Shown here: positions 1 to 13,014 of the stretch, piece after piece
Layout: every line of letters starts with the position of its first letter
Position numbering within the stretch: position 1 is the stretch's first letter
Source: a virus
DNA length: 33,152 bases
UHGV virus genome: UHGV-0189815
Strand: one strand, 5' to 3'
The notes under the pieces: model-generated
Seen by the model: only the letters and a program-made list of their open reading frames with translations
Databases searched by the model: none
What the model was told of the DNA's origin: nothing
Made by a program: the position numbers and the translations under genes

Positions 1-747
1 GTGACCAAACTCAAACTTCTGGCACTTGGAGTGCTTATCGCAACGTCTGCAGGCGTAGCGCACGCTGAAGGTAAATTTTCCCTGGGCGCAGGCGTAGGTG
101 TCGTTGAACACCCATATAAAGATTACGATACCGATGTTTACCCAGTACCGGTAATCAACTATGAAGGCGATAACTTCTGGTTCCGTGGCTTAGGTGGTGG
201 TTACTACCTGTGGAATGACGCAACGGATAAACTTTCAATTACCGCTTACTGGTCGCCGCTTTACTTCAAAGCGAAAGACAGTGGCGATCACCAAATGCGT
301 CACCTGGATGACCGTAAGAGCACCATGATGGCTGGTCTGTCTTATGCTCACTTTACCCAGTACGGTTACCTGCGTACCACCCTGGCTGGCGATACCCTGG
401 ATAACAGCAACGGCATTGTCTGGGATATGGCCTGGTTGTATCGTTACACCAACGGTGGCCTGACCGTGACTCCGGGTATTGGTGTGCAGTGGAACAGCGA
501 AAACCAGAACGAATACTATTATGGCGTATCGCGCAAAGAGTCCGCTCGCAGCGGTCTGCGTGGCTATAACCCGAACGACAGCTGGAGCCCTTACCTGGAG
601 CTGAGCGCCAGCTACAACTTCCTCGGCGACTGGAGTGTTTACGGTACCGCGCGCTATACCCGTCTGTCTGATGAAGTTACTGACAGCCCGATGGTGGATA
701 AATCCTGGACTGGCCTGATTTCTACCGGGATCACCTACAAATTCTGA
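1..747 (+). CDS. mipA: MipA/OmpV-family outer-membrane protein (MltA-interacting protein); host flank
   Basis: 248-aa ORF with N-terminal signal peptide (MTKLKLLALGVLIATSAGVAHA) and a beta-rich, aromatic C-terminus ending ...TGITYKF typical of outer-membrane barrels; I recognise the sequence as enterobacterial MipA. GTG start at window edge. Confidence 0.85.
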   Translation: MTKLKLLALGVLIATSAGVAHAEGKFSLGAGVGVVEHPYKDYDTDVYPVPVINYEGDNFWFRGLGGGYYLWNDATDKLSITAYWSPLYFKAKDSGDHQMRHLDDRKSTMMAGLSYAHFTQYGYLRTTLAGDTLDNSNGIVWDMAWLYRYTNGGLTVTPGIGVQWNSENQNEYYYGVSRKESARSGLRGYNPNDSWSPYLELSASYNFLGDWSVYGTARYTRLSDEVTDSPMVDKSWTGLISTGITYKF

Positions 748-961: not shown

Positions 962-1954
962 TTATATTTTCATCGTAGCTAATGGGTTTAATGTCACCGC
1001 ATCAAACAAATGATCAGGGGCAAAGTGGGCATACGTCATCGTTTGTTGGATTTTGTGATGGCCCAGGACTCGTTGAAGTACCAATATGTTTCCTCCGTTT
1101 GCCATGAAATGAGAGGCGAAAGTGTGCCTGAAAGCGTGAGTTGCCTGTCCGTCAGGTAGATCAGGAACAGCGCCTTTAATAACTTTTCGTGCAGTCTGAT
1201 AGCTCGCATCCGGGAAAATCAGTTGTTTGTCGTGTACTTCAATCCTCTGCATTAACTCCATTTCCAGTTCCTTACCGATAGGAACTGAACGTGATTTGCC
1301 ATTTTTGGTTTTTGTAAATGTCACCATGCCGTTAACCAGTCTCTGCCTGGTTAATTTTGCACCTTCACTCCATCGTGCACCGGTGGACAGACAAAGTTTG
1401 GCTATCAGCTTGTTGTCGCCTGTTAACTCTGTCAGAACCGTTCTAATCTGTTCGTCAGTAAAATATCCCTGTTCTGATTCGGTCAGTTTCAGTTCTGCGA
1501 GTCCAGTCATTGGGTTGTTATCCCAGAATAGATCCAGTTCTTTCAATTTACTGAACACTGACTTCAAGTATCGTTGTTCATTATTTAACGTTTTTGGCGC
1601 GATCCCTTCTGCCCGCCGTTTTGTTCGGTACTCTGCAAAAAGCTGGGCGGTGAGTTGGGTTATACGTGGATTATTTAAGCGCGCGCATGAGGCATTCAAA
1701 ATCCATAACCGGTTTTTGCAGTCGGTGAGCGTTTGCCCGTGGTTCTTCCACCACAATTCGATCAGTTCAGATAACCGACGCCGATCAGCTGGTTTTTCCA
1801 GCCATTCTTTATTATTAGCACTGGCTATTATCCAGCGTTCAAAGGTGACAGCCTCTGATTTAGTGGAGAATGAACGCCTGACGCGCTTCCCGGAACGCCC
1901 CGCAGGCCGAACATCAACCATGTATTTTCCGTTGTCCTTTTTAGTAATGGTCAT
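962..1954 (-). CDS. int: Phage integrase, tyrosine recombinase (P2 Int-like)
   Basis: 330-aa ORF; N-terminus (KKDNGKYMVDVRPAGRSGKRVRRSF.TKSEA) and C-terminal catalytic region (LSTGARWSEG ... HAFRHTFASHFMANGGNILVLQRVLGHHKIQQTMTYAHF) align with my memory of P2 integrase; conserved R...H.R..Y active-site context present. Confidence 0.9.
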   Translation of the reverse strand: MTITKKDNGKYMVDVRPAGRSGKRVRRSFSTKSEAVTFERWIIASANNKEWLEKPADRRRLSELIELWWKNHGQTLTDCKNRLWILNASCARLNNPRITQLTAQLFAEYRTKRRAEGIAPKTLNNEQRYLKSVFSKLKELDLFWDNNPMTGLAELKLTESEQGYFTDEQIRTVLTELTGDNKLIAKLCLSTGARWSEGAKLTRQRLVNGMVTFTKTKNGKSRSVPIGKELEMELMQRIEVHDKQLIFPDASYQTARKVIKGAVPDLPDGQATHAFRHTFASHFMANGGNILVLQRVLGHHKIQQTMTYAHFAPDHLFDAVTLNPLATMKI

Positions 1955-2058
1955 TTGTCATTTTCTCCGGCTGTGAATGCTGGTCGTCATTTGCTGACGA
2001 ACTGAACTGGGTAACACGGGCAGCAATATATAACTGTTCAATTTGTTGCCAGTTCGGG

Positions 2059-2337
2059 TTATTGGTTAATAGATTGTTTTGGCGAGCGAAGAGGGAAAAG
2101 CGCCGGATCGATTTGCCCGGATGATGCTGCGGTCTTATTTGTCATCATCCATAACGTATATTTATTGAATCTGGGGTTTCGGGTGATCTTCAATAAATCA
2201 ATATCAGGCAGCGTCATTATTATTTGCTGCCTGAATTGATACAGTGTCTTCTTCGAAATATCACAAAATATCGCGAATTCGCAGATAGTGAGATTTTCAG
2301 CATTAATTATCAAGAATAAGCGGTTACGCAAGGACAT
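2059..2337 (-). CDS. P2 C-type repressor paralog (int-proximal copy, 'C2')
   Basis: C-terminal segment NPRFNKYTLWMMTNKTAASSGQIDPAL closely matches the P2 C repressor motif (PQFTKYTLWFMTNQIAPESGQIAPAL). ORF track starts at 2364; the internal ATG at 2337 has a GAGGTG Shine-Dalgarno just upstream, so the shorter 92-aa form is preferred. Sits directly upstream of int, as C does in P2. Confidence 0.6.
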   Translation of the reverse strand: MSLRNRLFLIINAENLTICEFAIFCDISKKTLYQFRQQIIMTLPDIDLLKITRNPRFNKYTLWMMTNKTAASSGQIDPALFPLRSPKQSINQ

Positions 2338-2380
2338 ATACACCTCGATTGCTATTATTGGCATTCAGGGCGCAAATATA

Positions 2381-2398
2381 TTGTTCGCACACGAACAA
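2381..2398. promoter_or_regulatory. Perfect inverted repeat TTGTTCG-N4-CGAACAA in the promoter region upstream of the int-proximal repressor paralog
   Basis: 18-bp palindrome read directly from the sequence in the AT-rich intergenic region 2365..2518; candidate operator. Not a LexA-box consensus. Confidence 0.3.
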
Positions 2399-2518
2399 AT
2401 TTTAGCCAAAACTGCTTATCAGTAATTCATGTATGTAATAAATGGTAATTATCAATCAATATAAAATATATGTTGTATATTTTTTGTGTAATTTATTAAA
2501 AAGTAATATATCGCACAA

Positions 2519-2953
2519 TTAGAACAGATCTTTTACCAAAGCGATTATGACTCCTGCTGTAGCGAAAAGGGCAGAGCATAGCCATATCATTTGCTTATGT
2601 AATCCCTTTGCAAGATCTTCCCTGGTTGCGGACCTGGACTCTTTGAGTTCGCCGCTAATCTGTGCCTTAAGCTCGCGCATATCTCCGGTCATCTGCGCAC
2701 GGAGTTCTTTCATATCCCCAGTTATCTGCGCCTTGAGTTCACGCAGATCGCCCTTTGAGGCGAAGTCATCAGCGCGCGCGTTGAGATGGGTAAGTTCTTT
2801 AACAATTACACCGGTATTGTCTTCCAGTTTTTCAACGCGTTTTATTAGGCTGTTCATGCCGTTGCCTCCGTCGTCACTACTGTTTGTGGACTCATTATTT
2901 ATGGGTACCTGACGTTCTCTTATATGATGAACATTATCCTTAGTCTGACTCAT
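2519..2953 (-). CDS. Tail-anchored coiled-coil membrane protein with tandem 11-residue repeats (moron gene; function unknown)
   Basis: 144-aa ORF with AAGGA Shine-Dalgarno 8 nt upstream; repeats GDLRELKAQIT/GDMKELRAQMT/GDMRELKAQIS (33-bp DNA period, about 2639..2752); single C-terminal hydrophobic helix (MIWLCSALFATAGVIIALV). Its start overlaps the stop of the upstream gene. Confidence 0.7.
   Translation of the reverse strand: MSQTKDNVHHIRERQVPINNESTNSSDDGGNGMNSLIKRVEKLEDNTGVIVKELTHLNARADDFASKGDLRELKAQITGDMKELRAQMTGDMRELKAQISGELKESRSATREDLAKGLHKQMIWLCSALFATAGVIIALVKDLF
2639..2752. repeat. About 3.5 tandem copies of a 33-bp coding repeat inside the coiled-coil gene
   Basis: Repeated 11-aa units in the translation correspond to near-identical 33-nt units in the DNA. 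Confidence 0.7.
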
Positions 2954-3389
2954 TTTTGCATTCCTTGCGATTCTCTTCTATCCATGCGACGACCGGGCGG
3001 GCGCGATAAATGCTGATATGCCCGCAGTTTGGGCAATTAATTTTATATTCGACATCGGCTAATCTTATTTTTGTATGAGTATTCACAAACACGGGCGTTA
3101 CATACCAGAGAGTATTATCAGCTGCGAATTTCTCCTGATCGATTTGCGATAAAGAGTCATAGTTTTCGGGAGTCTTTGCACCGTTATAAACTCCGTTTTC
3201 GGACATTGTTAATTTAGTAAATCCACATGATATGCAGAACTGAGCGGCGTTTTTTGACATCAAAAATTCAGCGAATAATTCAGGGGTAACTTGTTGTAGC
3301 CTTTTCATAAGTTCTGGTGATGGTTCTCCATAGCGGGAATTACGAGGTGGGCGTATTGGGGGTATAAATGTATCATTATCTTTTGACAT
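2940..3389 (-). CDS. Hypothetical protein with Cys-rich zinc-ribbon-like motifs (moron gene)
   Basis: 149-aa ORF with AAGGA Shine-Dalgarno upstream; CxxC (CISCG) and CPNCG motifs; AT-rich codon usage unlike the neighbouring phage genes; apparently co-transcribed downstream of the repressor. Confidence 0.65.
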   Translation of the reverse strand: MSKDNDTFIPPIRPPRNSRYGEPSPELMKRLQQVTPELFAEFLMSKNAAQFCISCGFTKLTMSENGVYNGAKTPENYDSLSQIDQEKFAADNTLWYVTPVFVNTHTKIRLADVEYKINCPNCGHISIYRARPVVAWIEENRKECKNESD

Positions 3390-3431
3390 ACATTTTCCTT
3401 ATGTATTATTCGCCCGCAGTGCGGGCGGTGA

Positions 3432-3692
3432 TTAACCGGTCTTTTTCTCTTCTTTGGTAACTGGTGCTATCTGACCTGCTTCTGGTGCGGTGATGTCAGA
3501 CATCAGCCATAGCGTGTATTTTTGAAAGCGCGGGTGTTGGGCGATTTTAACCAAAGCACTACCACCAGGTTCATACCCCCCCGTTTCATATTTCCTAAGC
3601 GTATTTATAGATAAGTCAATAACTTCGCAAAACTCATTCTGACTAAGACCTTCGGCTGCTCTAATCGCTTTTAATTTTTCACCAAGTTTCAT
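3432..3692 (-). CDS. P2 C-type immunity repressor (switch-proximal copy)
   Basis: C-terminal HPRFQKYTLWLMSDITAPEAGQIAPV matches the P2 C repressor motif; transcribed divergently from the Cox-like gene. ORF track start 3707 is a TTG; the first ATG is at 3692; the true start is uncertain. Confidence 0.7.
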   Translation of the reverse strand: MKLGEKLKAIRAAEGLSQNEFCEVIDLSINTLRKYETGGYEPGGSALVKIAQHPRFQKYTLWLMSDITAPEAGQIAPVTKEEKKTG

Positions 3693-3700
3693 TTGACAGT

Positions 3701-3746
3701 AGTCCAATTAGACATTAAATTTCCCTTCATGCAGTCTAATTAGACT
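3701..3746. promoter_or_regulatory. Candidate operator pair in the lysis-lysogeny switch region
   Basis: Two 14-bp palindromic sites, agtccaattagaca (3701..3714) and agtctaattagact (3733..3746, perfect palindrome), spaced 32 bp apart between the divergent repressor and Cox-like genes. Confidence 0.45.
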
Positions 3747-3789
3747 ACTTGAAGACAAGCGAAACCAATCTAAACAGACAGGATATCAA

Positions 3790-4209
3790 ATGACACCAGA
3801 GCAAAACAGAGCTTTACCCGCACATCAGGAGGCTGATCCTGGTTACTACCCGGTCGTTGAACTGGCACAAGGCGCGTTTTTACCCGAACAGACTCAAAGC
3901 AATCATCAGCGCCGCGCTCGGCGATCCCCTGATAGTCGTTCTGAACGTGAACTAATGGCAATTGACCGCGCACTGAAACATATCCTTAGTAGTGGCATTA
4001 AACCGGTTTTAACAGTGCAGGAATTTTCCGAATTCTTCGGACAGTCTTTGCGTAAGGTTCAAAGCGATGCTGAGCGCGGCTATCTGCCATTAGTGCCGCG
4101 TGTCGATCCAAATCGTCGCGAACTAAGACAAATCAATATGGTTGCATGGTATGCCAGAGCTTTTATGACTGCCGAAGCCAGCCTGACAAAAACGACAGCG
4201 TTTAATTGA
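3790..4209 (+). CDS. Cox/Apl-like excisionase-type regulator (first gene of the early rightward operon)
   Basis: C-terminal part (TVQEFSEFFGQSLRKVQSDAERGYLPLVPRVD...MVAWYA) resembles P2 Cox (PYQEFAKLIGKSTGAVRRMIDKGKLPVID...WVYLPAW). Start ambiguous: ATG 3790 has an AGGA-type Shine-Dalgarno; the internal ATG 3955 would give a Cox-sized 84-aa product. Confidence 0.55.
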   Translation: MTPEQNRALPAHQEADPGYYPVVELAQGAFLPEQTQSNHQRRARRSPDSRSERELMAIDRALKHILSSGIKPVLTVQEFSEFFGQSLRKVQSDAERGYLPLVPRVDPNRRELRQINMVAWYARAFMTAEASLTKTTAFN

Positions 4210-5209: not shown

Positions 5210-5797
5210 ATGAATAATATAATGATTGACATTGAAACATTAGACAATAAACCAACTGCCGCAATTGTTTCTATTGCTGCCGCATTTTTCGATCCCCGAA
5301 CTGGCGAGATTGGGATGTCTATTTATATTCCCGTCAATGTTGCTGATGCTCAATACAAAGGGGCGACAATTGGTGCGGATACTGTTAAATGGTGGATGAA
5401 GCAAAATTTATGCGCAAGAGATGAGCTTGTATCTGATGCTGGCTTGCCTTTATCAGAGTCGCTCTATAAGTTGAACGATTTTTGTTGTTTTTGTGATGAT
5501 TCAGACAATTTAAAAATATGGGCGCGCGGCACTGATTTTGATTTACCAGTTATTTATCACTCAATGCGCCTGACAGGGATTCGTCCGGCCTGGAATTTCT
5601 GGAATGCTCGCGACGTTAGAACGGTTGCAGAAATCGCGCTGACAATATGCGGTCATTCATCAATGCGCGCGGTTCTGGAACATCCGCATCACGCAATGAA
5701 TGACGTTATTAACCAGATTGCCAGATTAAGCGACGATATCAAAAACATTTCTGCCGTTCGCGCGGAGAAGGTGAATCATGATTCGCCGGAAAAATGA
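5210..5797 (+). CDS. DEDD-family (DnaQ-like) 3'-5' exonuclease
   Basis: Exo I motif IDIETLD near the N-terminus and HHAMNDV (H-x4-D) near the C-terminus, as in DEDDh exonucleases; 195 aa. Confidence 0.7.
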   Translation: MNNIMIDIETLDNKPTAAIVSIAAAFFDPRTGEIGMSIYIPVNVADAQYKGATIGADTVKWWMKQNLCARDELVSDAGLPLSESLYKLNDFCCFCDDSDNLKIWARGTDFDLPVIYHSMRLTGIRPAWNFWNARDVRTVAEIALTICGHSSMRAVLEHPHHAMNDVINQIARLSDDIKNISAVRAEKVNHDSPEK

Positions 5798-5999
5798 TAA
5801 TTGCCCCGCCTGCGTTGTTGATCAGGCACACAATTTAATTAATGAATTCCGACAGGGTCGCCGCGATAAAGTGCGGCGGCTGGCGACTGGTTATCTGTCA
5901 ATTGCAATCGGCAGATGTTGGCGGTTACTGAGTAAAAACGACGGCCAGCAATGGACTTTATTAACTCACGAACGATATAACAAGGAATATAAAAAATGA
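5778..5999 (+). CDS. Hypothetical small protein with CxxC motif
   Basis: 73-aa ORF with AGGTGA Shine-Dalgarno; overlaps the exonuclease stop and abuts the dam start (translational coupling). Confidence 0.5.
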   Translation: MIRRKNDNCPACVVDQAHNLINEFRQGRRDKVRRLATGYLSIAIGRCWRLLSKNDGQQWTLLTHERYNKEYKK

Positions 6000-7012
6000 T
6001 CAGACCGTTTTTGAAGTGGGCAGGTGGAAAAACTCGCGCTTTGCCTGAGCTGCTGCCGCACTTGCCAAAGGGTTATTGTCTGATGGAACCATTTGTTGGC
6101 GGCGGTTCGGTATTTTTAAACACAAGTTATGATAAGTATGTTTTAGCTGATATTAATTCAGATCTGATAAATACGTATGAAAACGTGAAGCATCGCACTA
6201 ATCTATTTATTGACGTTGCACGGGAATTATTTAAAGAAGGTAATTCAAAAGAATATTATTTAAAGATTCGCAAAGAATTTAACGAACTAAATACAAGTTA
6301 CCACGAATGCGGTCGCCGCCCCTTATCACTGAGATTGTCGTTAATGCAGTCGGCGCGGTTTCTCTATTTGAATCGGCACGGTTATAACGGCGTTTGCCGC
6401 TATAACAATAAACTGGAATACAATGTTCCGTTTGGTCAACATAAGACAGCGCCGTATTTTCCCGAAGAGGAGATCCGGCGGTTTGCAGAAAAGGCGAATG
6501 ATACAAACGCAGTGTTTCTCAATCTTAATTTTGATGACACATTATCAATGCTGACATTCGGGCCTAATCTCGTTATTTACTGCGATCCGCCATATTTACC
6601 CGCCAGCGAAACCGCAGACTTTACCACGTATTACGGACAGAGATTTTCGCGGGACGATCACTGCCGCTTAGTTCAGAAATTATTAGAAATAAGTGCGCGT
6701 GGTGCTGCAAAAGTTGTTATTTCAAACAGCGACACACCCGCCGCGCGAGAAATATACGTGTCGTTTACATTTCAGGAAATTAATGTTCAACGGTCAGTCA
6801 GTGCCAATACCAGCAAACGCGCGACTGCAAAAGAAGTGATCGGATATATCCCACATTGTGAATATTGCGGGGGTCGTCTGATTACTGGCCGTCCGTGTAG
6901 TTGTGACACCCAACGCCGCACGGTTTGGGGTTGCCCTGATGGCGGCTGCGGAGCTTGTGACAGTGTCGATCTTTGTGCGAGCGCGGGGAGTGAATTCTAT
7001 GACCAGGACTAG
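5996..7012 (+). CDS. dam: DNA adenine (N6) methyltransferase, Dam family, with Cys-rich C-terminal extension
   Basis: N-terminal FLKWAGGK and FVGGGSVF (SAM-binding motif I) and catalytic DPPY motif (IYCDPPYLPA); about 60 extra C-terminal residues with nine Cys (CEYCGG...CSCD...CPDGGCGACD...C). Confidence 0.85.
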   Translation: MIRPFLKWAGGKTRALPELLPHLPKGYCLMEPFVGGGSVFLNTSYDKYVLADINSDLINTYENVKHRTNLFIDVARELFKEGNSKEYYLKIRKEFNELNTSYHECGRRPLSLRLSLMQSARFLYLNRHGYNGVCRYNNKLEYNVPFGQHKTAPYFPEEEIRRFAEKANDTNAVFLNLNFDDTLSMLTFGPNLVIYCDPPYLPASETADFTTYYGQRFSRDDHCRLVQKLLEISARGAAKVVISNSDTPAAREIYVSFTFQEINVQRSVSANTSKRATAKEVIGYIPHCEYCGGRLITGRPCSCDTQRRTVWGCPDGGCGACDSVDLCASAGSEFYDQD

Positions 7013-7196: not shown

Positions 7197-7597
7197 CAAT
7201 TCACATAGTAGCGATTCAGCCGGATTATTTTCAGCCAGTGTTAAAACGCGAAAGACGCGCGGTGCTGTTAAATGAGGGGGATTATATAAAAGAAGATTTT
7301 TTATTTATCCGTGAGTTTGTTTTTGACGATACAGGAAAGAATCCGCCAACGGCGACAGGGGCTTGTGTCGCCGGGGTGATTACTGATGTTTATAAGACGG
7401 GGACTGGCGATGTTTTGCTGAGTTTTGATCTGTTATTTGTGTATAGCTATGTGCTTATTAATTGGGGTCTGACAAGAGGTGATCTGCTTAAACTGAGTAT
7501 TTACCCTGACTTTCTTGAAGAGCTTTTTACCGCGCACCCTCATTCGCCCGTATTTTACGCGATCGCTTACCGCATGATTGAAGAGGCGGATTTATGA
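7193..7597 (+). CDS. ASCH/PUA-like domain protein (putative)
   Basis: N-terminal pattern IHIVAIQPDYFQPVLKRERRAVLLNEGDY resembles the ASCH-domain N-terminus (conserved YF...E.R pattern); 134 aa; start overlaps the upstream stop. Confidence 0.5.
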   Translation: MTIHIVAIQPDYFQPVLKRERRAVLLNEGDYIKEDFLFIREFVFDDTGKNPPTATGACVAGVITDVYKTGTGDVLLSFDLLFVYSYVLINWGLTRGDLLKLSIYPDFLEELFTAHPHSPVFYAIAYRMIEEADL

Positions 7598-7634
7598 CCG
7601 CCTATTACAACGAAATCGATCCATTCGCTGCTCT

Positions 7635-10142
7635 GTGGCTGGCGTCTATCAATTGACGCGCGGACGCTACGCCCCAACACCGCCGCCCCCGTTCCTGGGG
7701 AGCGGCGCAGACACTACACTGTATCCATACGCGTGGAACGCCCCGCGCGCAGCAATTAGCGTTGACCGGACGCCGAAACATGATCCGCAGGAGTTCGCCG
7801 CAGAATACGAATTCTGGCAGCGTGTAAAATCCACTTTTCAGCCATATCCGACATTCATCCGCCGCCGCATGATGGCGCGCGTTGAACGTTCTCACGAAAA
7901 GCAGGGGCGACACGTCGCGGCGCTGGCGCTGCGAGATATCGCCAGCCGCGAATTAATCCACATTTCCGCCGTTATGCAGCAGTATTCCATAAGCCCGCCC
8001 CGCAATGCTGGGCGGGTTTATGAAACGCCGTTTGTTGGCCTTGAGCCGCTCTATCACAATTTTGAACAACTCACCGATCTGATCCGTCGTTTCGACACAC
8101 TGCCTGATTATTCGCCGGAGGATGTTGAATTACTGGCGCAGGACGTCGCAATTTACGCAAACGCCACACTGGCAGAAATTGCCGCAGATTGTGAACACCT
8201 GGACGAAATCGAAACTGGCCGGCGGTTTTACGCTGAATTGAAAACGTTGGCTAACGTTTTTCACGTCACGGCGGCAAGGGCAAACAAAAAACGCTTGTTG
8301 CCCGACGAGCTGGCGGCAGCGATCAGCAAAATGATCGACGCGCGCTACTGGAACCGCAATTTACTGCGTTACGCCGTGCGCTGGCGGGAGCATTTGCGGA
8401 TCTCCCTGGGCGACGTGCGCCGCAGCGTGTCAACCTATTGTAGTAAAGAACGCGTGAATGCGTGGCGGGAGCGACGCGAGCGTAATCGCGACATCATGTC
8501 AAGACTGGAAATAGAAGACGTTGAATCAGGCGAGCGTTTTTCACTGCTGGAGCAGATAGAAAAAAGCGCGTCCAATCCAGCGATACGCCGCACCGAGCTT
8601 ATGACGCGAATCGGCGGTTTTGAGCGAGTAGCCAATGAGCAGGGATTTGTCGGCAGCTTTTTTACTATTACCGCGCCGTCAAAATATCACGCGTTTACCG
8701 CGTTTGGTCATCGTAATCCTAAGTGGCAAGGCGCTAGCCCGCGCGAGTCTCAAAAATACCTGAATACCATTTGGCAGCGTATCCGCGCCGAGCTGGCGCG
8801 CCAGGAAATCGGCGCTTTTGGCTTACGTGTAGCCGAGGCGCATCACGACGCAACGCCGCACTGGCACGGCCTGTTATTCACTCTGCCGGAGCATCAGGAG
8901 GCGCTACGCGACGTCATGCAGCGTTACGCAACAGCTGAGGACGCCGACGAATTAACGACGAAACACGGCATACAGCCGCGTTTCGATTTCAAACCGATTG
9001 ATCCCGAGCGGGGAACCGCTACGGGCTATATCGTCAAATACGTCTCTAAAAATATCGACGGTTACGCGCTGGATAATGAGCGCGACGACGAAAGCGGACG
9101 TCCACTGAAAGACACGGCGCAACATGCGACCGCGTGGGCGTCTACGTGGGGGATCAGGCAGTTCCAGTTTTTGGGCGGTGTGCCGGTGTCGGTGTACCGC
9201 GAACTGCGGAGGCTGGGGAATCAACAGGCCGCTGATCAGATTAATCCGCTGTTTGCCGAGATCCACGCCGCAGCGGACGCGGGGGATTGGGGCGGGTTTG
9301 TTAATCTCATGGGCGGACCGCTGGCAAAACGCGCGGATTTACCGTTGCGCACGTTTTATCAGGATAAACCGGAGCCTAACAGCTGGGGCGAATATCTGAC
9401 GGTTATCCGCGGTGTATTTATGCCGCTGATTAATATCCCGCCGGTAATAACCAGGTTGCGGGATTTTCGCATTGTTAAAAAATCGCCGGAGAGCGCGGAG
9501 CGCCCCGGTGATGGCTGTTCATCTTTTGACCTTAAGGGCGCGTCTGCGCCCGCTAGGACTTGTGTCAATAACTGTACGGAGCATGAAAAAACAGCAAAAG
9601 ATGAACAAAATATAAACAGTGAAGCGGACTTTTTGGGAGAGAAAAACAGCGGTGCGCCGCCACCGGGAGATCCCGAACAGGTTCTGATCGGCAAATTGAC
9701 ACGGGAACAACGCAAACGCCTGCGCGCTGAGTGTCTGACGCACAAAAAACAGCGTAAACAATCGGCTGCTGACGAGTTCGAAGCGCTGGCGAATCAATTA
9801 GCGACGGCGGACTGTTCGGGCGCGGACCAGCTGCGCGCAGAAAATTATTTACGTGCGGCGGCGGTCATTCGCGAGACTGAAAAACCGGTCACGGCTGCAG
9901 CGGCAGAACTGGCCGCGCGCGTCATGGAGTGGGCGAAATTGCGCAAAATACCGCTGGGCCGCGCGCAATCGCTGGCACTGGCGCAAGGCGGACAGGCGAC
10001 AGTTATTGACAACGTTTACCGGGCTAACATGAACACCGGCGAACTGATCCTGATTGACACGTTCCAGCCGTGGCGGCGTGTGCTGGCGAAAAAACAAACT
10101 GTGGAACTGATGGCGCGCTGGCGGGCTGTGGTAACCGTATGA
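7635..10142 (+). CDS. Rolling-circle replication initiator (P2 gpA-like HUH endonuclease)
   Basis: Aligns with my memory of P2 gpA: YAWNAPR, FTITAPSKYH, HUH-type TPHWHGLLF, catalytic Tyr pair GYIVKYVSKNIDGYALD, GRPLKDTA...TAWASTW. ORF-track start is TTG 7578; by alignment to the P2 gpA N-terminus the likely start is GTG 7635 (or TTG 7650). Confidence 0.85.
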   Translation: MAGVYQLTRGRYAPTPPPPFLGSGADTTLYPYAWNAPRAAISVDRTPKHDPQEFAAEYEFWQRVKSTFQPYPTFIRRRMMARVERSHEKQGRHVAALALRDIASRELIHISAVMQQYSISPPRNAGRVYETPFVGLEPLYHNFEQLTDLIRRFDTLPDYSPEDVELLAQDVAIYANATLAEIAADCEHLDEIETGRRFYAELKTLANVFHVTAARANKKRLLPDELAAAISKMIDARYWNRNLLRYAVRWREHLRISLGDVRRSVSTYCSKERVNAWRERRERNRDIMSRLEIEDVESGERFSLLEQIEKSASNPAIRRTELMTRIGGFERVANEQGFVGSFFTITAPSKYHAFTAFGHRNPKWQGASPRESQKYLNTIWQRIRAELARQEIGAFGLRVAEAHHDATPHWHGLLFTLPEHQEALRDVMQRYATAEDADELTTKHGIQPRFDFKPIDPERGTATGYIVKYVSKNIDGYALDNERDDESGRPLKDTAQHATAWASTWGIRQFQFLGGVPVSVYRELRRLGNQQAADQINPLFAEIHAAADAGDWGGFVNLMGGPLAKRADLPLRTFYQDKPEPNSWGEYLTVIRGVFMPLINIPPVITRLRDFRIVKKSPESAERPGDGCSSFDLKGASAPARTCVNNCTEHEKTAKDEQNINSEADFLGEKNSGAPPPGDPEQVLIGKLTREQRKRLRAECLTHKKQRKQSAADEFEALANQLATADCSGADQLRAENYLRAAAVIRETEKPVTAAAAELAARVMEWAKLRKIPLGRAQSLALAQGGQATVIDNVYRANMNTGELILIDTFQPWRRVLAKKQTVELMARWRAVVTV

Positions 10143-10312: not shown

Positions 10313-11635
10313 ATGTACGCTGAGTTAAATGAATTTATAAATGCTCTAGATAAATTAAAAGATTATTTTGATGAGTCTGAAAAATCATATGGGCATAAAA
10401 ATAAATGGCTTATAGAAGCATTTGGCATCGGTCATCCTGTAATGTTGCCAAAAGACTTTTCTGACTATATTGAAAGAATGATCGAGAAGTCAAAAAAATT
10501 AGAGATGCTTAAATTAACTGATTTCGAACTAGATGAACTCGACTATGTAAGAAAAGTCGTAACAAAGGTACATTCTGACCTTGCTCCTAGCTTTTATAAT
10601 GGAAATGGTGTACAAGCGATTCCTTCATTTTTAATGACCATGACATATATATCTTCATTTTTAGATTCTTTGATTTCCTTCGACCGACTCCAGGATACGG
10701 ATGCCGTACCTCAGAAATTAGCACGTAAAATACGGAGTATGGATGCAAGAGTAAGACAAGCTACTCCAGAAATTGAAACACTGGAAGGTAAAATTAAATT
10801 GATTAACGATGCATATGCCGCAGCTGATAATCTACCGGTATATATGGAAGAGTTAAATAAATACAAGGCAGAATTAACGGAAATAAAAGAGTACATTTTA
10901 AAGGCAAAAGAAGAAGCATCTCATTCGAATGTCTTAATGGATGTTTGTCTAAACGAAGGGGAAAAGATAAAAGAAGAGTTAAATGCAAAAAAAGAGATCG
11001 CAGAAAATTATCTTTCGAAATGTGAGGAAGCTATTCGTGCTTCGACTTCAAAAGGGTTAGCGGGAGCTTTTGAGATCAAAGCGAATAAGTTAAACTGTAG
11101 CATTCGTTTATGGGTAGCAGGATTATCTGCGGCATTAATTGCCGGTGGGTTTGTTGGTTATGAAAGGTTAAAAGCATTATCCAATGTTTTAGCGCAACCA
11201 GATACCAGTGCAATAGTGATTGCAACGCAATTAATACTATCCATATTTAGTATCGGCGCGCCGCTTTGGTTTGCGTGGTTGTCTACAAAGCAAATTAATC
11301 AAAGATTTAAGCTAGCAGAAGATTATGCCTTTAAGTCTGCCGTTGCAAAAGCATATGAGGGTTACAGAAAAGAAGCATCGCAACTTGATGATGGAACATT
11401 CGCTACTCGGTTGTTTGATTCTGCTTTAACCCGTCTAGAGGAAGCCCCATTAAGATTTGTCCAAGGTGATGATCACTCAACACCATGGATGGAAATGTTA
11501 AACTCTAAAGCTTTTTCTAAATTTCTTGATTCTTCGATTGATAATGTAAACTATGTTAAAAATATCCTTGATCGTAAGGCTAAACCCTCTGTAGTTGCAG
11601 ATAAGCCACAGCAGATGGAAAAGGGGACTGAATAA
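10313..11635 (+). CDS. AT-rich moron: 440-aa coiled-coil protein with two central transmembrane helices; unknown function (candidate defence/exclusion factor)
   Basis: Complete ORF with GAGG Shine-Dalgarno, AT-rich upstream region (10143..10312) and its own terminator; visibly more AT-rich than flanking phage genes; long N-terminal helical region rich in E/K, hydrophobic segments LWVAGLSAALIAGGFVGY and IVIATQLILSIFSIGAPLWFAWL, about 130-aa C-terminal domain. No P-loop or other catalytic motif seen. Confidence 0.8.
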   Translation: MYAELNEFINALDKLKDYFDESEKSYGHKNKWLIEAFGIGHPVMLPKDFSDYIERMIEKSKKLEMLKLTDFELDELDYVRKVVTKVHSDLAPSFYNGNGVQAIPSFLMTMTYISSFLDSLISFDRLQDTDAVPQKLARKIRSMDARVRQATPEIETLEGKIKLINDAYAAADNLPVYMEELNKYKAELTEIKEYILKAKEEASHSNVLMDVCLNEGEKIKEELNAKKEIAENYLSKCEEAIRASTSKGLAGAFEIKANKLNCSIRLWVAGLSAALIAGGFVGYERLKALSNVLAQPDTSAIVIATQLILSIFSIGAPLWFAWLSTKQINQRFKLAEDYAFKSAVAKAYEGYRKEASQLDDGTFATRLFDSALTRLEEAPLRFVQGDDHSTPWMEMLNSKAFSKFLDSSIDNVNYVKNILDRKAKPSVVADKPQQMEKGTE

Positions 11636-11668: not shown

Positions 11669-11980
11669 GCTTGGTAACAACAGGTATAATGTTTTTTGTT
11701 TTTGTTCTGGCGACATCATATCGATCAGCGTTTTGATAGCGCGGTCAGATGAAAGCGCGCTGGGGCTTAATGTGTGAGAAAATGTTATATTAACGACGAA
11801 AGTATGACCGCACTCAACGTTATTACAGGCGCAATAAACATCTGATAGATGGGGATGTTTCCGCACGGTCTTTTTGATCGTTGAATTGCCGTTGCATTCC
11901 GGACAGATAATTTTCGGGCTGCGCAATTTGTTTCCCCTTAATCTATTTTTGAGCGGGGTATATTTTAACCGTTTAGCCAT
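11666..11980 (-). CDS. Ogr/Delta-family zinc-finger late-gene transcriptional activator (putative)
   Basis: CPECNG...YCACNNVECGHTF matches the Ogr/Delta zinc-finger pattern (CP.C ... C.N..C...F; P2 Ogr has HQCQNVNCSATF). 104 aa, longer than P2 Ogr; start overlaps the portal stop (TAATG). Confidence 0.55.
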   Translation of the reverse strand: MAKRLKYTPLKNRLRGNKLRSPKIICPECNGNSTIKKTVRKHPHLSDVYCACNNVECGHTFVVNITFSHTLSPSALSSDRAIKTLIDMMSPEQKQKTLYLLLPS

Positions 11981-13014
11981 TATTTTTCATCCTCTATCGC
12001 TTTCGGTTTTTTGAATAACACCTGCATTGCGCGGGTAATTTCAGAATCACTATTGATTGCATTCTCAATTAGCGCCTGCATGGGCCAGACTTCATCTAAT
12101 TGATATACGGCACGGACTTTTAACGGGTCGCCCAGTCCGCCCACGTTATCCGGAATAATGCCCGCAAGGCCAGGCGGGAAGCGATGGGCGGTTAACTGGT
12201 CCTGTGCGGATATGCGCTTGATATTCACATATTCATCTTTTGTTGCGACATCACCCACAGGGATAATTTTAACGCCGTCTGGTTTACCGTTGGGGATGTT
12301 AATAAACATACTGCGGAAATTACCCGCGCCTTTTGACTGTTCTATTTTTTCAGAAATGGCCTTTTCCATTTCTGGTGATAAATCCGGATCGGTGGCATAC
12401 AGGATATAACCTAAATGCGCCCCATTACGATAATATTTGCGGCGAAACATGGTCGCGTCACTATTTAACATCGCCGACTGGATGCCGCCTAAATAATCCG
12501 GTTTTCCGTAAATCTGCTGCAACGTATCGTACTGACGGATAAAAATAATATCTTTTGCGGCATATTCTTTATATTCGCCGTCGCGTAACAATAATTTTGT
12601 TTTGCCGTCAGTGGAACGCCGCACATAAACAGACGGCAGCGGGTACAGGCGCACGACCTGCCCGAAGCCGTTGCGGATCTTTAACAGCGCCACGTCACCG
12701 AACGTCACGAAGTTAACGGCCAGCGCCAGGGCGGTTTCAGGCGTCAGACCGCCGCCGCGAAGAAAACCCGCCGCGACCATTTTCGCGCGCGCCCCCAGAC
12801 ATGCGCCGTGGTACGTTGCGATGTCGGGCAATTTTGCCAGCGCTTCCCGGTCAATGGGCGGCGTCCAGTAGCCGTCTCCTTCATCTGTTACGCCATCATA
12901 TGAACCCAGGCACGGCACGCGCTCGGCGTCGCCGAATTCCACGCTAAAAGACATCTGTTTTTGAATAGCTGGCGCGAGGGCCGGGGCTGGTTGTTGTTTT
13001 TTACGTTTTGCCAT
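11980..13014 (-). CDS. Portal protein (P2 gpQ-like)
   Basis: 344 aa, the size I recall for P2 gpQ; lies immediately downstream of the terminase large subunit, divergent from the scaffold/capsid genes, as in the P2 Q-P arrangement. Confidence 0.75.
   Translation of the reverse strand: MAKRKKQQPAPALAPAIQKQMSFSVEFGDAERVPCLGSYDGVTDEGDGYWTPPIDREALAKLPDIATYHGACLGARAKMVAAGFLRGGGLTPETALALAVNFVTFGDVALLKIRNGFGQVVRLYPLPSVYVRRSTDGKTKLLLRDGEYKEYAAKDIIFIRQYDTLQQIYGKPDYLGGIQSAMLNSDATMFRRKYYRNGAHLGYILYATDPDLSPEMEKAISEKIEQSKGAGNFRSMFINIPNGKPDGVKIIPVGDVATKDEYVNIKRISAQDQLTAHRFPPGLAGIIPDNVGGLGDPLKVRAVYQLDEVWPMQALIENAINSDSEITRAMQVLFKKPKAIEDEK

Follow-up and report, generated by a model that had tools for sequence, protein, structure and literature searches.

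The virus genome UHGV-0189815 (the window, that is, the whole analyzed stretch of 33,152 nucleotides, to which all coordinates refer unless another sequence is named) carries a P2-like prophage whose lysogeny region holds two genes of the P2 C repressor family. Phage P2 is the model of a minimal two-repressor switch and has one C gene that is cotranscribed with int. In the window, a primary repressor gene, C, lies at the switch, and a second, divergent gene, designated C' here, lies next to int. Read leftward, the order is C, a hairpin, orf149, orf144, a 181-bp spacer, C', a 104-nucleotide gap, and int. The features of the region are as follows.

962..1954, minus strand: int, tyrosine integrase of a distinct clade (Pfam Int_N and Phage_integrase)
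1941..2111, minus strand: orfX, conserved small frame of about 50 codons, open in all five lineages that carry C'
2059..2337, minus strand: C', int-proximal divergent P2 C-family helix-turn-helix (HTH) gene, 92 amino acids (BLASTP, phrog_147, PDB, AlphaFold/Foldseek)
2331..2358, plus strand: promoter-like element AGGACA-16-TATTAT facing away from C', its -35 hexamer overlapping the C' start codon
2338..2518, no strand assigned: AT-rich spacer of 181 bp, 27% G+C, the proximal part of which (about 90 bp) is the conserved C' leader
2342..2347, minus strand: Shine-Dalgarno sequence GAGGTG of C' (GAGGTG, GAGGCG, or AGGGGT before ATG at all orthologous loci)
2381..2398, no strand assigned: inverted repeat TTGTTCG-CACA-CGAACAA, with 7-bp arms and a 4-nucleotide spacer
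2519..2953, minus strand: orf144, cargo gene, coiled-coil repeat and C-terminal hydrophobic helix, 14-nucleotide overlap with orf149
2940..3389, minus strand: orf149, zinc-ribbon-like cargo gene (phrog_4293, function unknown)
3411..3427, minus strand: G+C-rich hairpin just past the C stop codon, with no T-run in the window
3432..3692, minus strand: C, primary immunity repressor, 86 amino acids (Pfam HTH_3, phrog_147, P2 C in the PDB)
3693..3721, plus strand: Pe-like early promoter TTGACA-17-TAAATT, 10/12 consensus matches
3701-3713 and 3733-3745: operator pair, 12- to 13-bp repeats GTCCAATTAGAC and GTCTAATTAGAC, spacing of 32 bp
3790..4209, plus strand: Cox-like gene, 139 amino acids, N-terminal extension (phrog_575, E value of 7e-9; weak Pfam Phage_Cox match at residues 71 to 125)

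The C locus is a P2-type switch, with a Pe-like promoter, paired repeats, and a Cox-like gene opposite C, and the proposal of an earlier sequence-only reading that a C-like gene sits at the divergent switch is borne out. The C protein matches Pfam HTH_3 (E value, 4.8e-10), phrog_147 (E value, 1e-28), and the P2 C structures 2l49 and 2xcj in the PDB (E value, 1e-13). It shares 68% identity with C from L-413C and its related phages and about 39% with the P2 C that was crystallized, and its HTH has the canonical Cro/C1-type signature, with the E-x-G motif following helix 3 (YETG). Each of the operator repeats, GTCCAATTAGAC and GTCTAATTAGAC, is palindromic in itself, and the pair flanks the -10 hexamer of Pe. 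The motif is unique to the switch, no further copy occurring anywhere in the window (chance expectation, 0.13); operators for C near C' or int were ruled out, GTCTAATTRGAC being confined to the switch. P2 itself has the lysogenic operon Pe/Pc-C-int and a C immunity repressor with the structures PDB 2XCJ and 2L49 (PMC2995052, PMC1904263). As in P2, C lies at a switch of convergent promoters opposite a cox-like gene, with two directly repeated operators, and C and C' are both homologs of P2 C. Unlike those of P2, which are nonpalindromic and 22 bp apart, the operator repeats of the window are palindromic and 32 bp apart, which suggests a different binding geometry. In a related Escherichia coli locus (L032, GCA_053234945.1), the half-sites at 3354..3402 (CCTCCTATATAGGAGG) are likewise each palindromic and 32 bp apart. 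The Cox models cover residues 71 to 125 only of the Cox-like protein, and its N-terminal extension of about 70 residues, which adjoins the swapped operator region, differs between the window and L032. A Fil-like gene comes after the Cox-like gene, to the right of the switch. A scan of the whole window with Rfam matched no family.

The int-proximal gene, which the sequence-only reading had also called C-like, is a C paralog by sequence homology and predicted fold. BLASTP aligned C' with C over 78 amino acids at 40% identity (E value, 1e-16), and C' matches phrog_147 (E value, 1.5e-15) and the P2 C structure (2xcj/2l49; E value, 1.5e-8), P2 C being the sole PDB match for both proteins. The helices predicted by AlphaFold (residues 3 to 13, 18 to 25, 29 to 36, 45 to 52, and 59 to 66) correspond to the five-helix fold of P2 C, and the best PDB match of the model in Foldseek is 2xcj_A (template modeling score, 0.63/0.68); the predicted local distance difference test (pLDDT) value is 84 to 90 over the HTH but 69 overall. 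A start at position 2337 is backed by the conserved Shine-Dalgarno sequence, while the longer open reading frame (ORF) up to 2364 is not conserved. The G+C content of C' is 39%. Surface residues E14, K59, Y60, and the stretch GQIDPAL (from G74 on) are invariant in all C' orthologs; the conserved C-family surface patch of P2 C comprises E16, K60, Y61, P72, and G75-H83 (PMC2995052), and P72 corresponds to A71 in the C' of the window. At the DNA-binding end, C' has R36 and Q38 where P2 C has E38 and G40, so that the E-x-G motif after helix 3 is missing, and the substitution E38A in P2 C abolishes operator binding (PMC2995052). K and R residues abound in helix 3 of C'. No Pfam model, HTH models included, matched C' at an E value of <0.1. 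C' is not opposite a cox gene, the nearest cox-like gene lying 1.45 kb off, beyond C, and no C' ortholog was found at a switch among the loci whose context was examined.

C' belongs to a small orthologous group. In a collection of 5.8 billion proteins, the family forms five clusters at 90% identity, whose members are 52 to 96% identical to C', and an HMMER search of 1.84 billion representatives returned one full-length C' and one partial C', followed by ordinary C proteins with far lower scores. The profile search, HMMER, and searches of GTDB species genomes, IMG/VR, JGI metagenomes, isolate phages, and plasmids yielded no C' members beyond these five clusters. Identity within the group is 52 to 74%, whereas C' is 31 to 45% identical to every C examined, its neighbor and P2 C included. 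The contexts recovered are E. coli prophages at mipA, Enterobacter sp. MF024, and three metagenomic contigs. C' is full length in the E. coli-type loci L003, L007, L008, and L032 to L034, and its ORF is intact in strain 40EC, the one genome that was read among the seven complete E. coli genomes with C'. In these genomes, RefSeq and the NCBI Prokaryotic Genome Annotation Pipeline (PGAP) place no feature over C' (7/7), so that C' is a gene that the pipeline misses in all of them; its position in one is NZ_CP070920.1 2057880..2058158. The Enterobacter ortholog is annotated as a transcriptional regulator. Ordinary P2-like phages have a single C: this was the case in 18 IMG/VR contigs, whose int is 40 to 46% identical to that of the window, and isolate phages showed one C-like place in 106/106 and 146/146 records, none having two C-like genes.

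Pairs of C' orthologs have ratios of nonsynonymous to synonymous substitution rates (dN/dS) of 0.12 to 0.39 at a dS of about 0.9 or more. The nonsynonymous difference per site (pN) is 0.08 to 0.12 in the C-terminal half and 0.37 to 0.53 in helices 2 and 3, with the strongest constraint at residues 43 to 82, which include helices 4 and 5 and the surface patch. C'-specific residues are invariant over the five lineages, and conservation among the orthologs extends to the Shine-Dalgarno sequence, the start codon, and a leader of about 90 bp. Our comparisons thus indicate that C' is an old, selected gene marking a rare, uncharacterized P2-like lineage, not a pseudogene or a fresh scar. The sequence-only reading had named two findings that would tell against it. 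The first, that one copy is a pseudogene, is contradicted by the intact ORF of C' and its dN/dS. The second, that the arrangement is the standard layout of a well-characterized lineage, applies in part: it is the standard layout of a lineage, but of a rare and uncharacterized one.

The linkage of C' to int is strict. C' lies 90 to 126 nucleotides upstream of int in every member with context (104 nucleotides in the window), and its linkage to one int clade holds in at least five diverged lineages; the int of the window is 60 to 66% identical to the int of all other C'-bearing loci and 40 to 48% identical to ordinary P2-like int. The order and spacing of C' and int equal those of C and int in P2-like phages. 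What differs from P2 is that a conserved small ORF, orfX, ties C' to int. Its frame differs from that of C', whose 3' end it overlaps, and it extends 14 nucleotides past the int start; counterparts of orfX lie at 6227..6376 in the Enterobacter locus L002, 1337..1486 in L038, 1052..1213 in L005, and 467..634 in L004. The ratio of nonsynonymous to synonymous polymorphism (pN/pS) is 0.09 to 0.69 in the orfX frame, compared with about 1 in the other two frames. Four lineages have a TTG start codon at the position where the window has TCG, and in L002 and L038 the orfX stop codon overlaps the start codon of int. In the gap between C and int of ordinary P2-like phages, orfX was not found. Because orfX is coding by pN/pS, overlaps the end of C', and reaches the start of int, these observations support the view that C', orfX, and int would form one expression unit. 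A second conserved promoter-like element, TTGCCA-18-TA[AG]ATT, lies antisense to C' at its stop codon (window 2046..2075, plus strand; L005 1117..1088; L038 1402..1373); it falls within the orfX codons for WQQI, and constraint on that coding sequence may be what accounts for it.

Upstream of C', the AT-rich region that the sequence-only reading had described is present, at 2338..2518. Its leader portion carries degenerate A[GA]CAA[TA]A boxes, and in L002 and L038 three such boxes occur 31 to 34 bp apart, an arrangement seen in 0/5000 shuffles. The -35 hexamer of the outward-facing element is placed over the C' start as that of Pe is at C. Relatives have stronger versions (ATGACA-16-TATATT in L002 and L038; ATGACA-18-TATAAA in L004), which score 10/12 in L002, L038 (1117..1090), and L004, and the element was found in all lineages except L005. 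Were it active, its transcript would be antisense to both C and the cargo. The 18-bp perfect palindrome reported earlier at 2381..2398 is in fact a 7+4+7 inverted repeat, self-complementary at 14/18 positions, which was picked up as a weak terminator-like hairpin of the minus strand. The window contains about 0.25 repeats of this class per 181 bp, and the left arm of this one is not kept in the orthologous regions of L002 or L004. As an operator for C' this repeat was discarded, being imperfect, common by chance, and not conserved in L002 or L004.

The interval between C and C' is variable. The window and 40EC hold orf149 and orf144, L002 holds one unrelated gene of 293 amino acids with a BRCT-like end, L005 and L004 are empty, L032 holds the window's C as a second copy followed by cargo, and L038 holds two more canonical C genes. 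The cargo of the window begins directly after the hairpin at 3411..3427; the counterpart of this hairpin in L005 has a T-run behind it and is scored as an intrinsic terminator. Since C' occurs without orf149 and orf144 in L005, L004, and L038, the cargo is not functionally tied to C', and the inserted genes are cargo in a variable slot, incidental to C'. The two genes that the sequence-only reading called AT rich are present but only mildly so (46 and 41% G+C; window, 50%). A large protein search with orf149 found only near-identical relatives, and matches of orf144 in Pfam and PHROG were weak and of the coiled-coil type only. PADLOC found nothing for orf149 and one marginal match for orf144 (PbeC; E value, 0.001), and the L002 cargo has a partial PADLOC match to PDC-S48 (E value, 4e-8). 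The idea that the window cargo is a known defense system was discarded, neither PADLOC nor Pfam giving anything convincing. A homolog of orf149 (39% identical) lies after int in a Klebsiella P2-like element without C' (L031, CP052639.1, 4119..4508), and remoter homologs occur at varied cargo positions in Klebsiella, Salmonella, and Enterobacter phage genomes of 29 to 52 kb. Two 33-nucleotide stretches of orf144 (2549..2581 and 2907..2939) are 100% identical to sequences in E. coli clustered regularly interspaced short palindromic repeat (CRISPR) arrays (NZ_LR778147.1 and NZ_CM135959.1), so E. coli CRISPR has sampled orf144 or a relative.

Comparison of relatives shows that the genes at the switch turn over while C' stays in place. 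Seven E. coli prophages in complete genomes have C', cargo, and int that are 97 to 99% identical to those of the window, and in one of them, 40EC, C is 62% identical to the window's C and the repeats, spaced by the same 32 bp, differ in sequence (ATTTGTACC). The primary C and its operators thus swap independently of C', and the window-type and 40EC-type phages are predicted to be heteroimmune, yet they carry the same C'. In L032, a stack of three C-type genes spans 3411..3958. A new C (C-a) lies at the switch with its own pair of palindromic repeats 32 bp apart, and 26 nucleotides downstream of it lies C-b, which is the window's C gene (100% identical protein, two synonymous changes). The 8.4-kb L032 locus contained 0 matches to the C-b operator motif within one mismatch, and its lone two-mismatch match is at chance level. 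In L038 (46..1395), three canonical C genes (C-1, C-2, and C-3) and a terminator-like hairpin precede C', making a tandem of four; C-1, C-2, and C-3 are intact and differ in their helix 2-3 sequences, and one of them resembles the single C of L002. Stacking on top of C' has therefore occurred at least twice, and it shows that a second paralog can arise by insertion of an immunity cassette instead of substitution. A recombination scar between heteroimmune P2-like phages had been suggested for the window; the recombinational origin agrees with these stacks, whereas a recent, one-off event does not agree with an old, selected orthologous group. Single polypeptides of 163 to 195 amino acids with two complete tandem C-type domains (P0006, P0007, P0009, and P0063) were also found, so that elsewhere the C module is duplicated by gene fusion as well. 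Two further candidates for stacks were rejected: a DNA-pattern search for tandem canonical C genes in IMG/VR gave two matches, both by chance and in unrelated genes, and an Arsenophonus plasmid with three C-like places has its copies dispersed in a transposon-rich mosaic.

We favor the explanation that C' is a displaced ancestral C-family repressor, kept under selection as the first gene of C'-orfX-int, and assign it a probability of roughly 50%. C' would formerly have stood at the lysis-lysogeny switch, would then have been displaced, and would now be the oldest, fixed layer. New immunity cassettes, consisting of operators and a new C, would be installed at the switch, with the older repressors pushed downstream and retained, a process that could be termed repressor stacking. 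The interval between C and C' would tolerate insertions because a terminator or hairpin follows the switch-side C and C' has a leader of its own. C' would still be a DNA-binding regulator that acts on its own leader, at the boxes and the outward promoter-like element, and would thereby set orfX-int expression independently of the immunity switch. The boxes and the outward element resemble the remnants of a former switch.

Several observations weigh against this explanation. DNA binding by C' may be altered or lost, because the E-x-G motif is absent and the Pfam HTH models fail, and the AlphaFold model of C', built on an alignment of five sequences, is only moderate (pLDDT, 69). The candidate boxes of C' were clear in L002 and L038 only; those of the window are degenerate, with one box left. 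The boxes are moreover conserved while the presumed recognition helix varies among orthologs, which would be unlike a repressor-operator pair. No same-strand sigma-70 promoter lies upstream of C' at a consistent position across the lineages; a shared promoter of this kind was discarded as a candidate, and C'-int may be read through from Pc. Furthermore, no canonical start codon is available to orfX in the window lineage, and the comparison comprises five or six independent C' lineages, three of which are short metagenomic contigs.

An extension of the same idea, which we put forward tentatively, is that the displaced repressors form immunity arrays: they would be kept and coexpressed, rendering the prophage immune to several heteroimmune P2-like phages, while C' and orfX would have been co-opted as a switch-independent controller of int, making the interval between C and C' a safe landing pad where cargo and more repressors could insert. 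If this were true, immunity would be asymmetric, an L032 lysogen being immune to a window-type phage but not the reverse.

A different possibility, which we regard as rather doubtful for C', is heterotypic immunity, in which C' made by the prophage would shut off the early promoter of infecting P2-like phages that belong to another class. A precedent has been shown by experiment in mycobacteriophage Mcgavigan, in which an acquired Bxb1-like second repressor gives heterotypic superinfection immunity (PMC12700041). L032 keeps an orphan C that is identical to the active repressor of the window and whose operators are absent from the 8.4-kb locus, so that window-type phages would be its only obvious target; L038 retains three intact canonical C genes with differing helices 2 and 3; and helices 2 and 3 of C' diverge among lineages as those of immunity classes do. 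However, a C'-class repressor was found at a switch in none of the isolate phages, plasmids, IMG/VR sequences, GTDB representatives, metagenomes, or protein collections searched; C' is fixed with int across a divergence deep enough that synonymous sites are saturated, which is unlike a defense against one competitor; and C' lacks the E-x-G motif that P2 C needs for operator binding. Heterotypic immunity would therefore fit the orphan C of L032 much better than C'. With Mcgavigan, L032 shares an extra repressor (C-b) homologous to the immunity repressor of another phage, an exact fit on sequence grounds. Unlike the Mcgavigan repressor, C' has no cognate target phage among those found, and it is ancient, fixed, and coupled to int instead of recently acquired.

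It is also unlikely, though in accord with the distribution of constraint, that C' acts at the protein level through its C-terminal half, by forming mixed dimers or tetramers with C or by titrating an antirepressor of the P4 epsilon type. Constraint peaks at residues 43 to 82 while helices 2 and 3 evolve fast. The strictly conserved C-family patch faces away from the DNA and has no known role, contact with P4 E or RNA polymerase having been suggested, and C' keeps the T66-N67 motif of P2 C, the site of a sos mutation (T67I) linked to interaction with P4 E (PMC2995052). Ordinary C proteins of different immunity classes, however, likewise vary in the N-terminal half and are conserved in the C-terminal half (PMC2995052), and the pattern is hence unspecific; the K/R-rich helix 3 and the confidently modeled HTH would fit retained DNA binding.

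Decay is disfavored as an account of C'. A neutral relic of an immunity swap, kept only through its position in the int transcript, would be consistent with the lack of an annotation in the seven complete E. coli genomes, with the failure of Pfam to match, and with the low G+C content of C', and such relics do form anew, as C-b of L032 shows. Against it, the ORF is intact in every copy examined, dN/dS is low at saturating dS, and the Shine-Dalgarno sequence, start codon, leader, and C'-specific residues are preserved across lineages. We consider it most improbable, and discarded the idea, that C' is a dedicated regulator of orf149 and orf144 in one three-gene accessory or defense module: although the three genes are adjacent on the same strand in the window and HTH regulators are common in defense systems, C' has different cargo in L002 and none at the cargo-free loci L005, L004, and L038, the orf149 homolog after int is in a phage without C', and neither cargo gene has a convincing PADLOC match.

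The arrangement can be set beside several known systems. It differs from that of P2 in having two paralogs in place of one, with C' off the switch, without a cox partner, without E-x-G, and beyond the reach of Pfam HTH models, although C' retains the surface patch of P2-like C proteins. Heteroimmune P2-like phages (P2, P2 Hy dis, and W-phi) have been described, with seven immunity classes and swapping of modules (PMC1904268, PMC3448106). The C/operator module is likewise swapped between the near-identical window and 40EC phages. In the described swaps the old C is replaced, whereas here an old C can be retained downstream, giving tandem arrays of two to four. Accessory and defense hotspots of P2-like prophages are also known (PMC9122126), and a minor one, between int and gpA, holds 8% of P2 defense systems (PMC13586616). 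Our slot resembles them in its variable gene content between conserved flanks within the int-gpA interval; it differs in that it is bounded by two repressor paralogs, that the window cargo matches no known defense family, and that extra repressors can fill it. No published description of an int-linked second conserved C paralog or of tandem C arrays in P2-like phages was found in a literature of which our coverage was partial. This lineage would show how immunity specificities can be exchanged through insertion instead of replacement, how a prophage might broaden its superinfection immunity, and how a new cargo slot can open inside a lysogeny operon.

Outside the lysogeny region, the window contains the following landmarks.

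1..747: mipA, which opens the window and is followed by the P2-like prophage
7578..10142: gpA, P2-like prophage gene
11980..13014: portal gene, P2-like prophage gene

An ORF of 440 amino acids at 10313..11635 (plus strand) occupies the known hotspot between gpA and the portal gene; it has no Pfam family and only marginal PADLOC matches and is a candidate uncharacterized accessory or defense gene. A small ParE-like ORF at 5778..5999 overlaps the start of a Dam-type methylase gene at 5996..7012. The ParE-like assignment comes from Pfam ParE_like in the annotation of L003 and L032 and from PGAP, which names the product a "ParE family toxin-like protein," and the methylase has a Cys-rich C-terminal tail.

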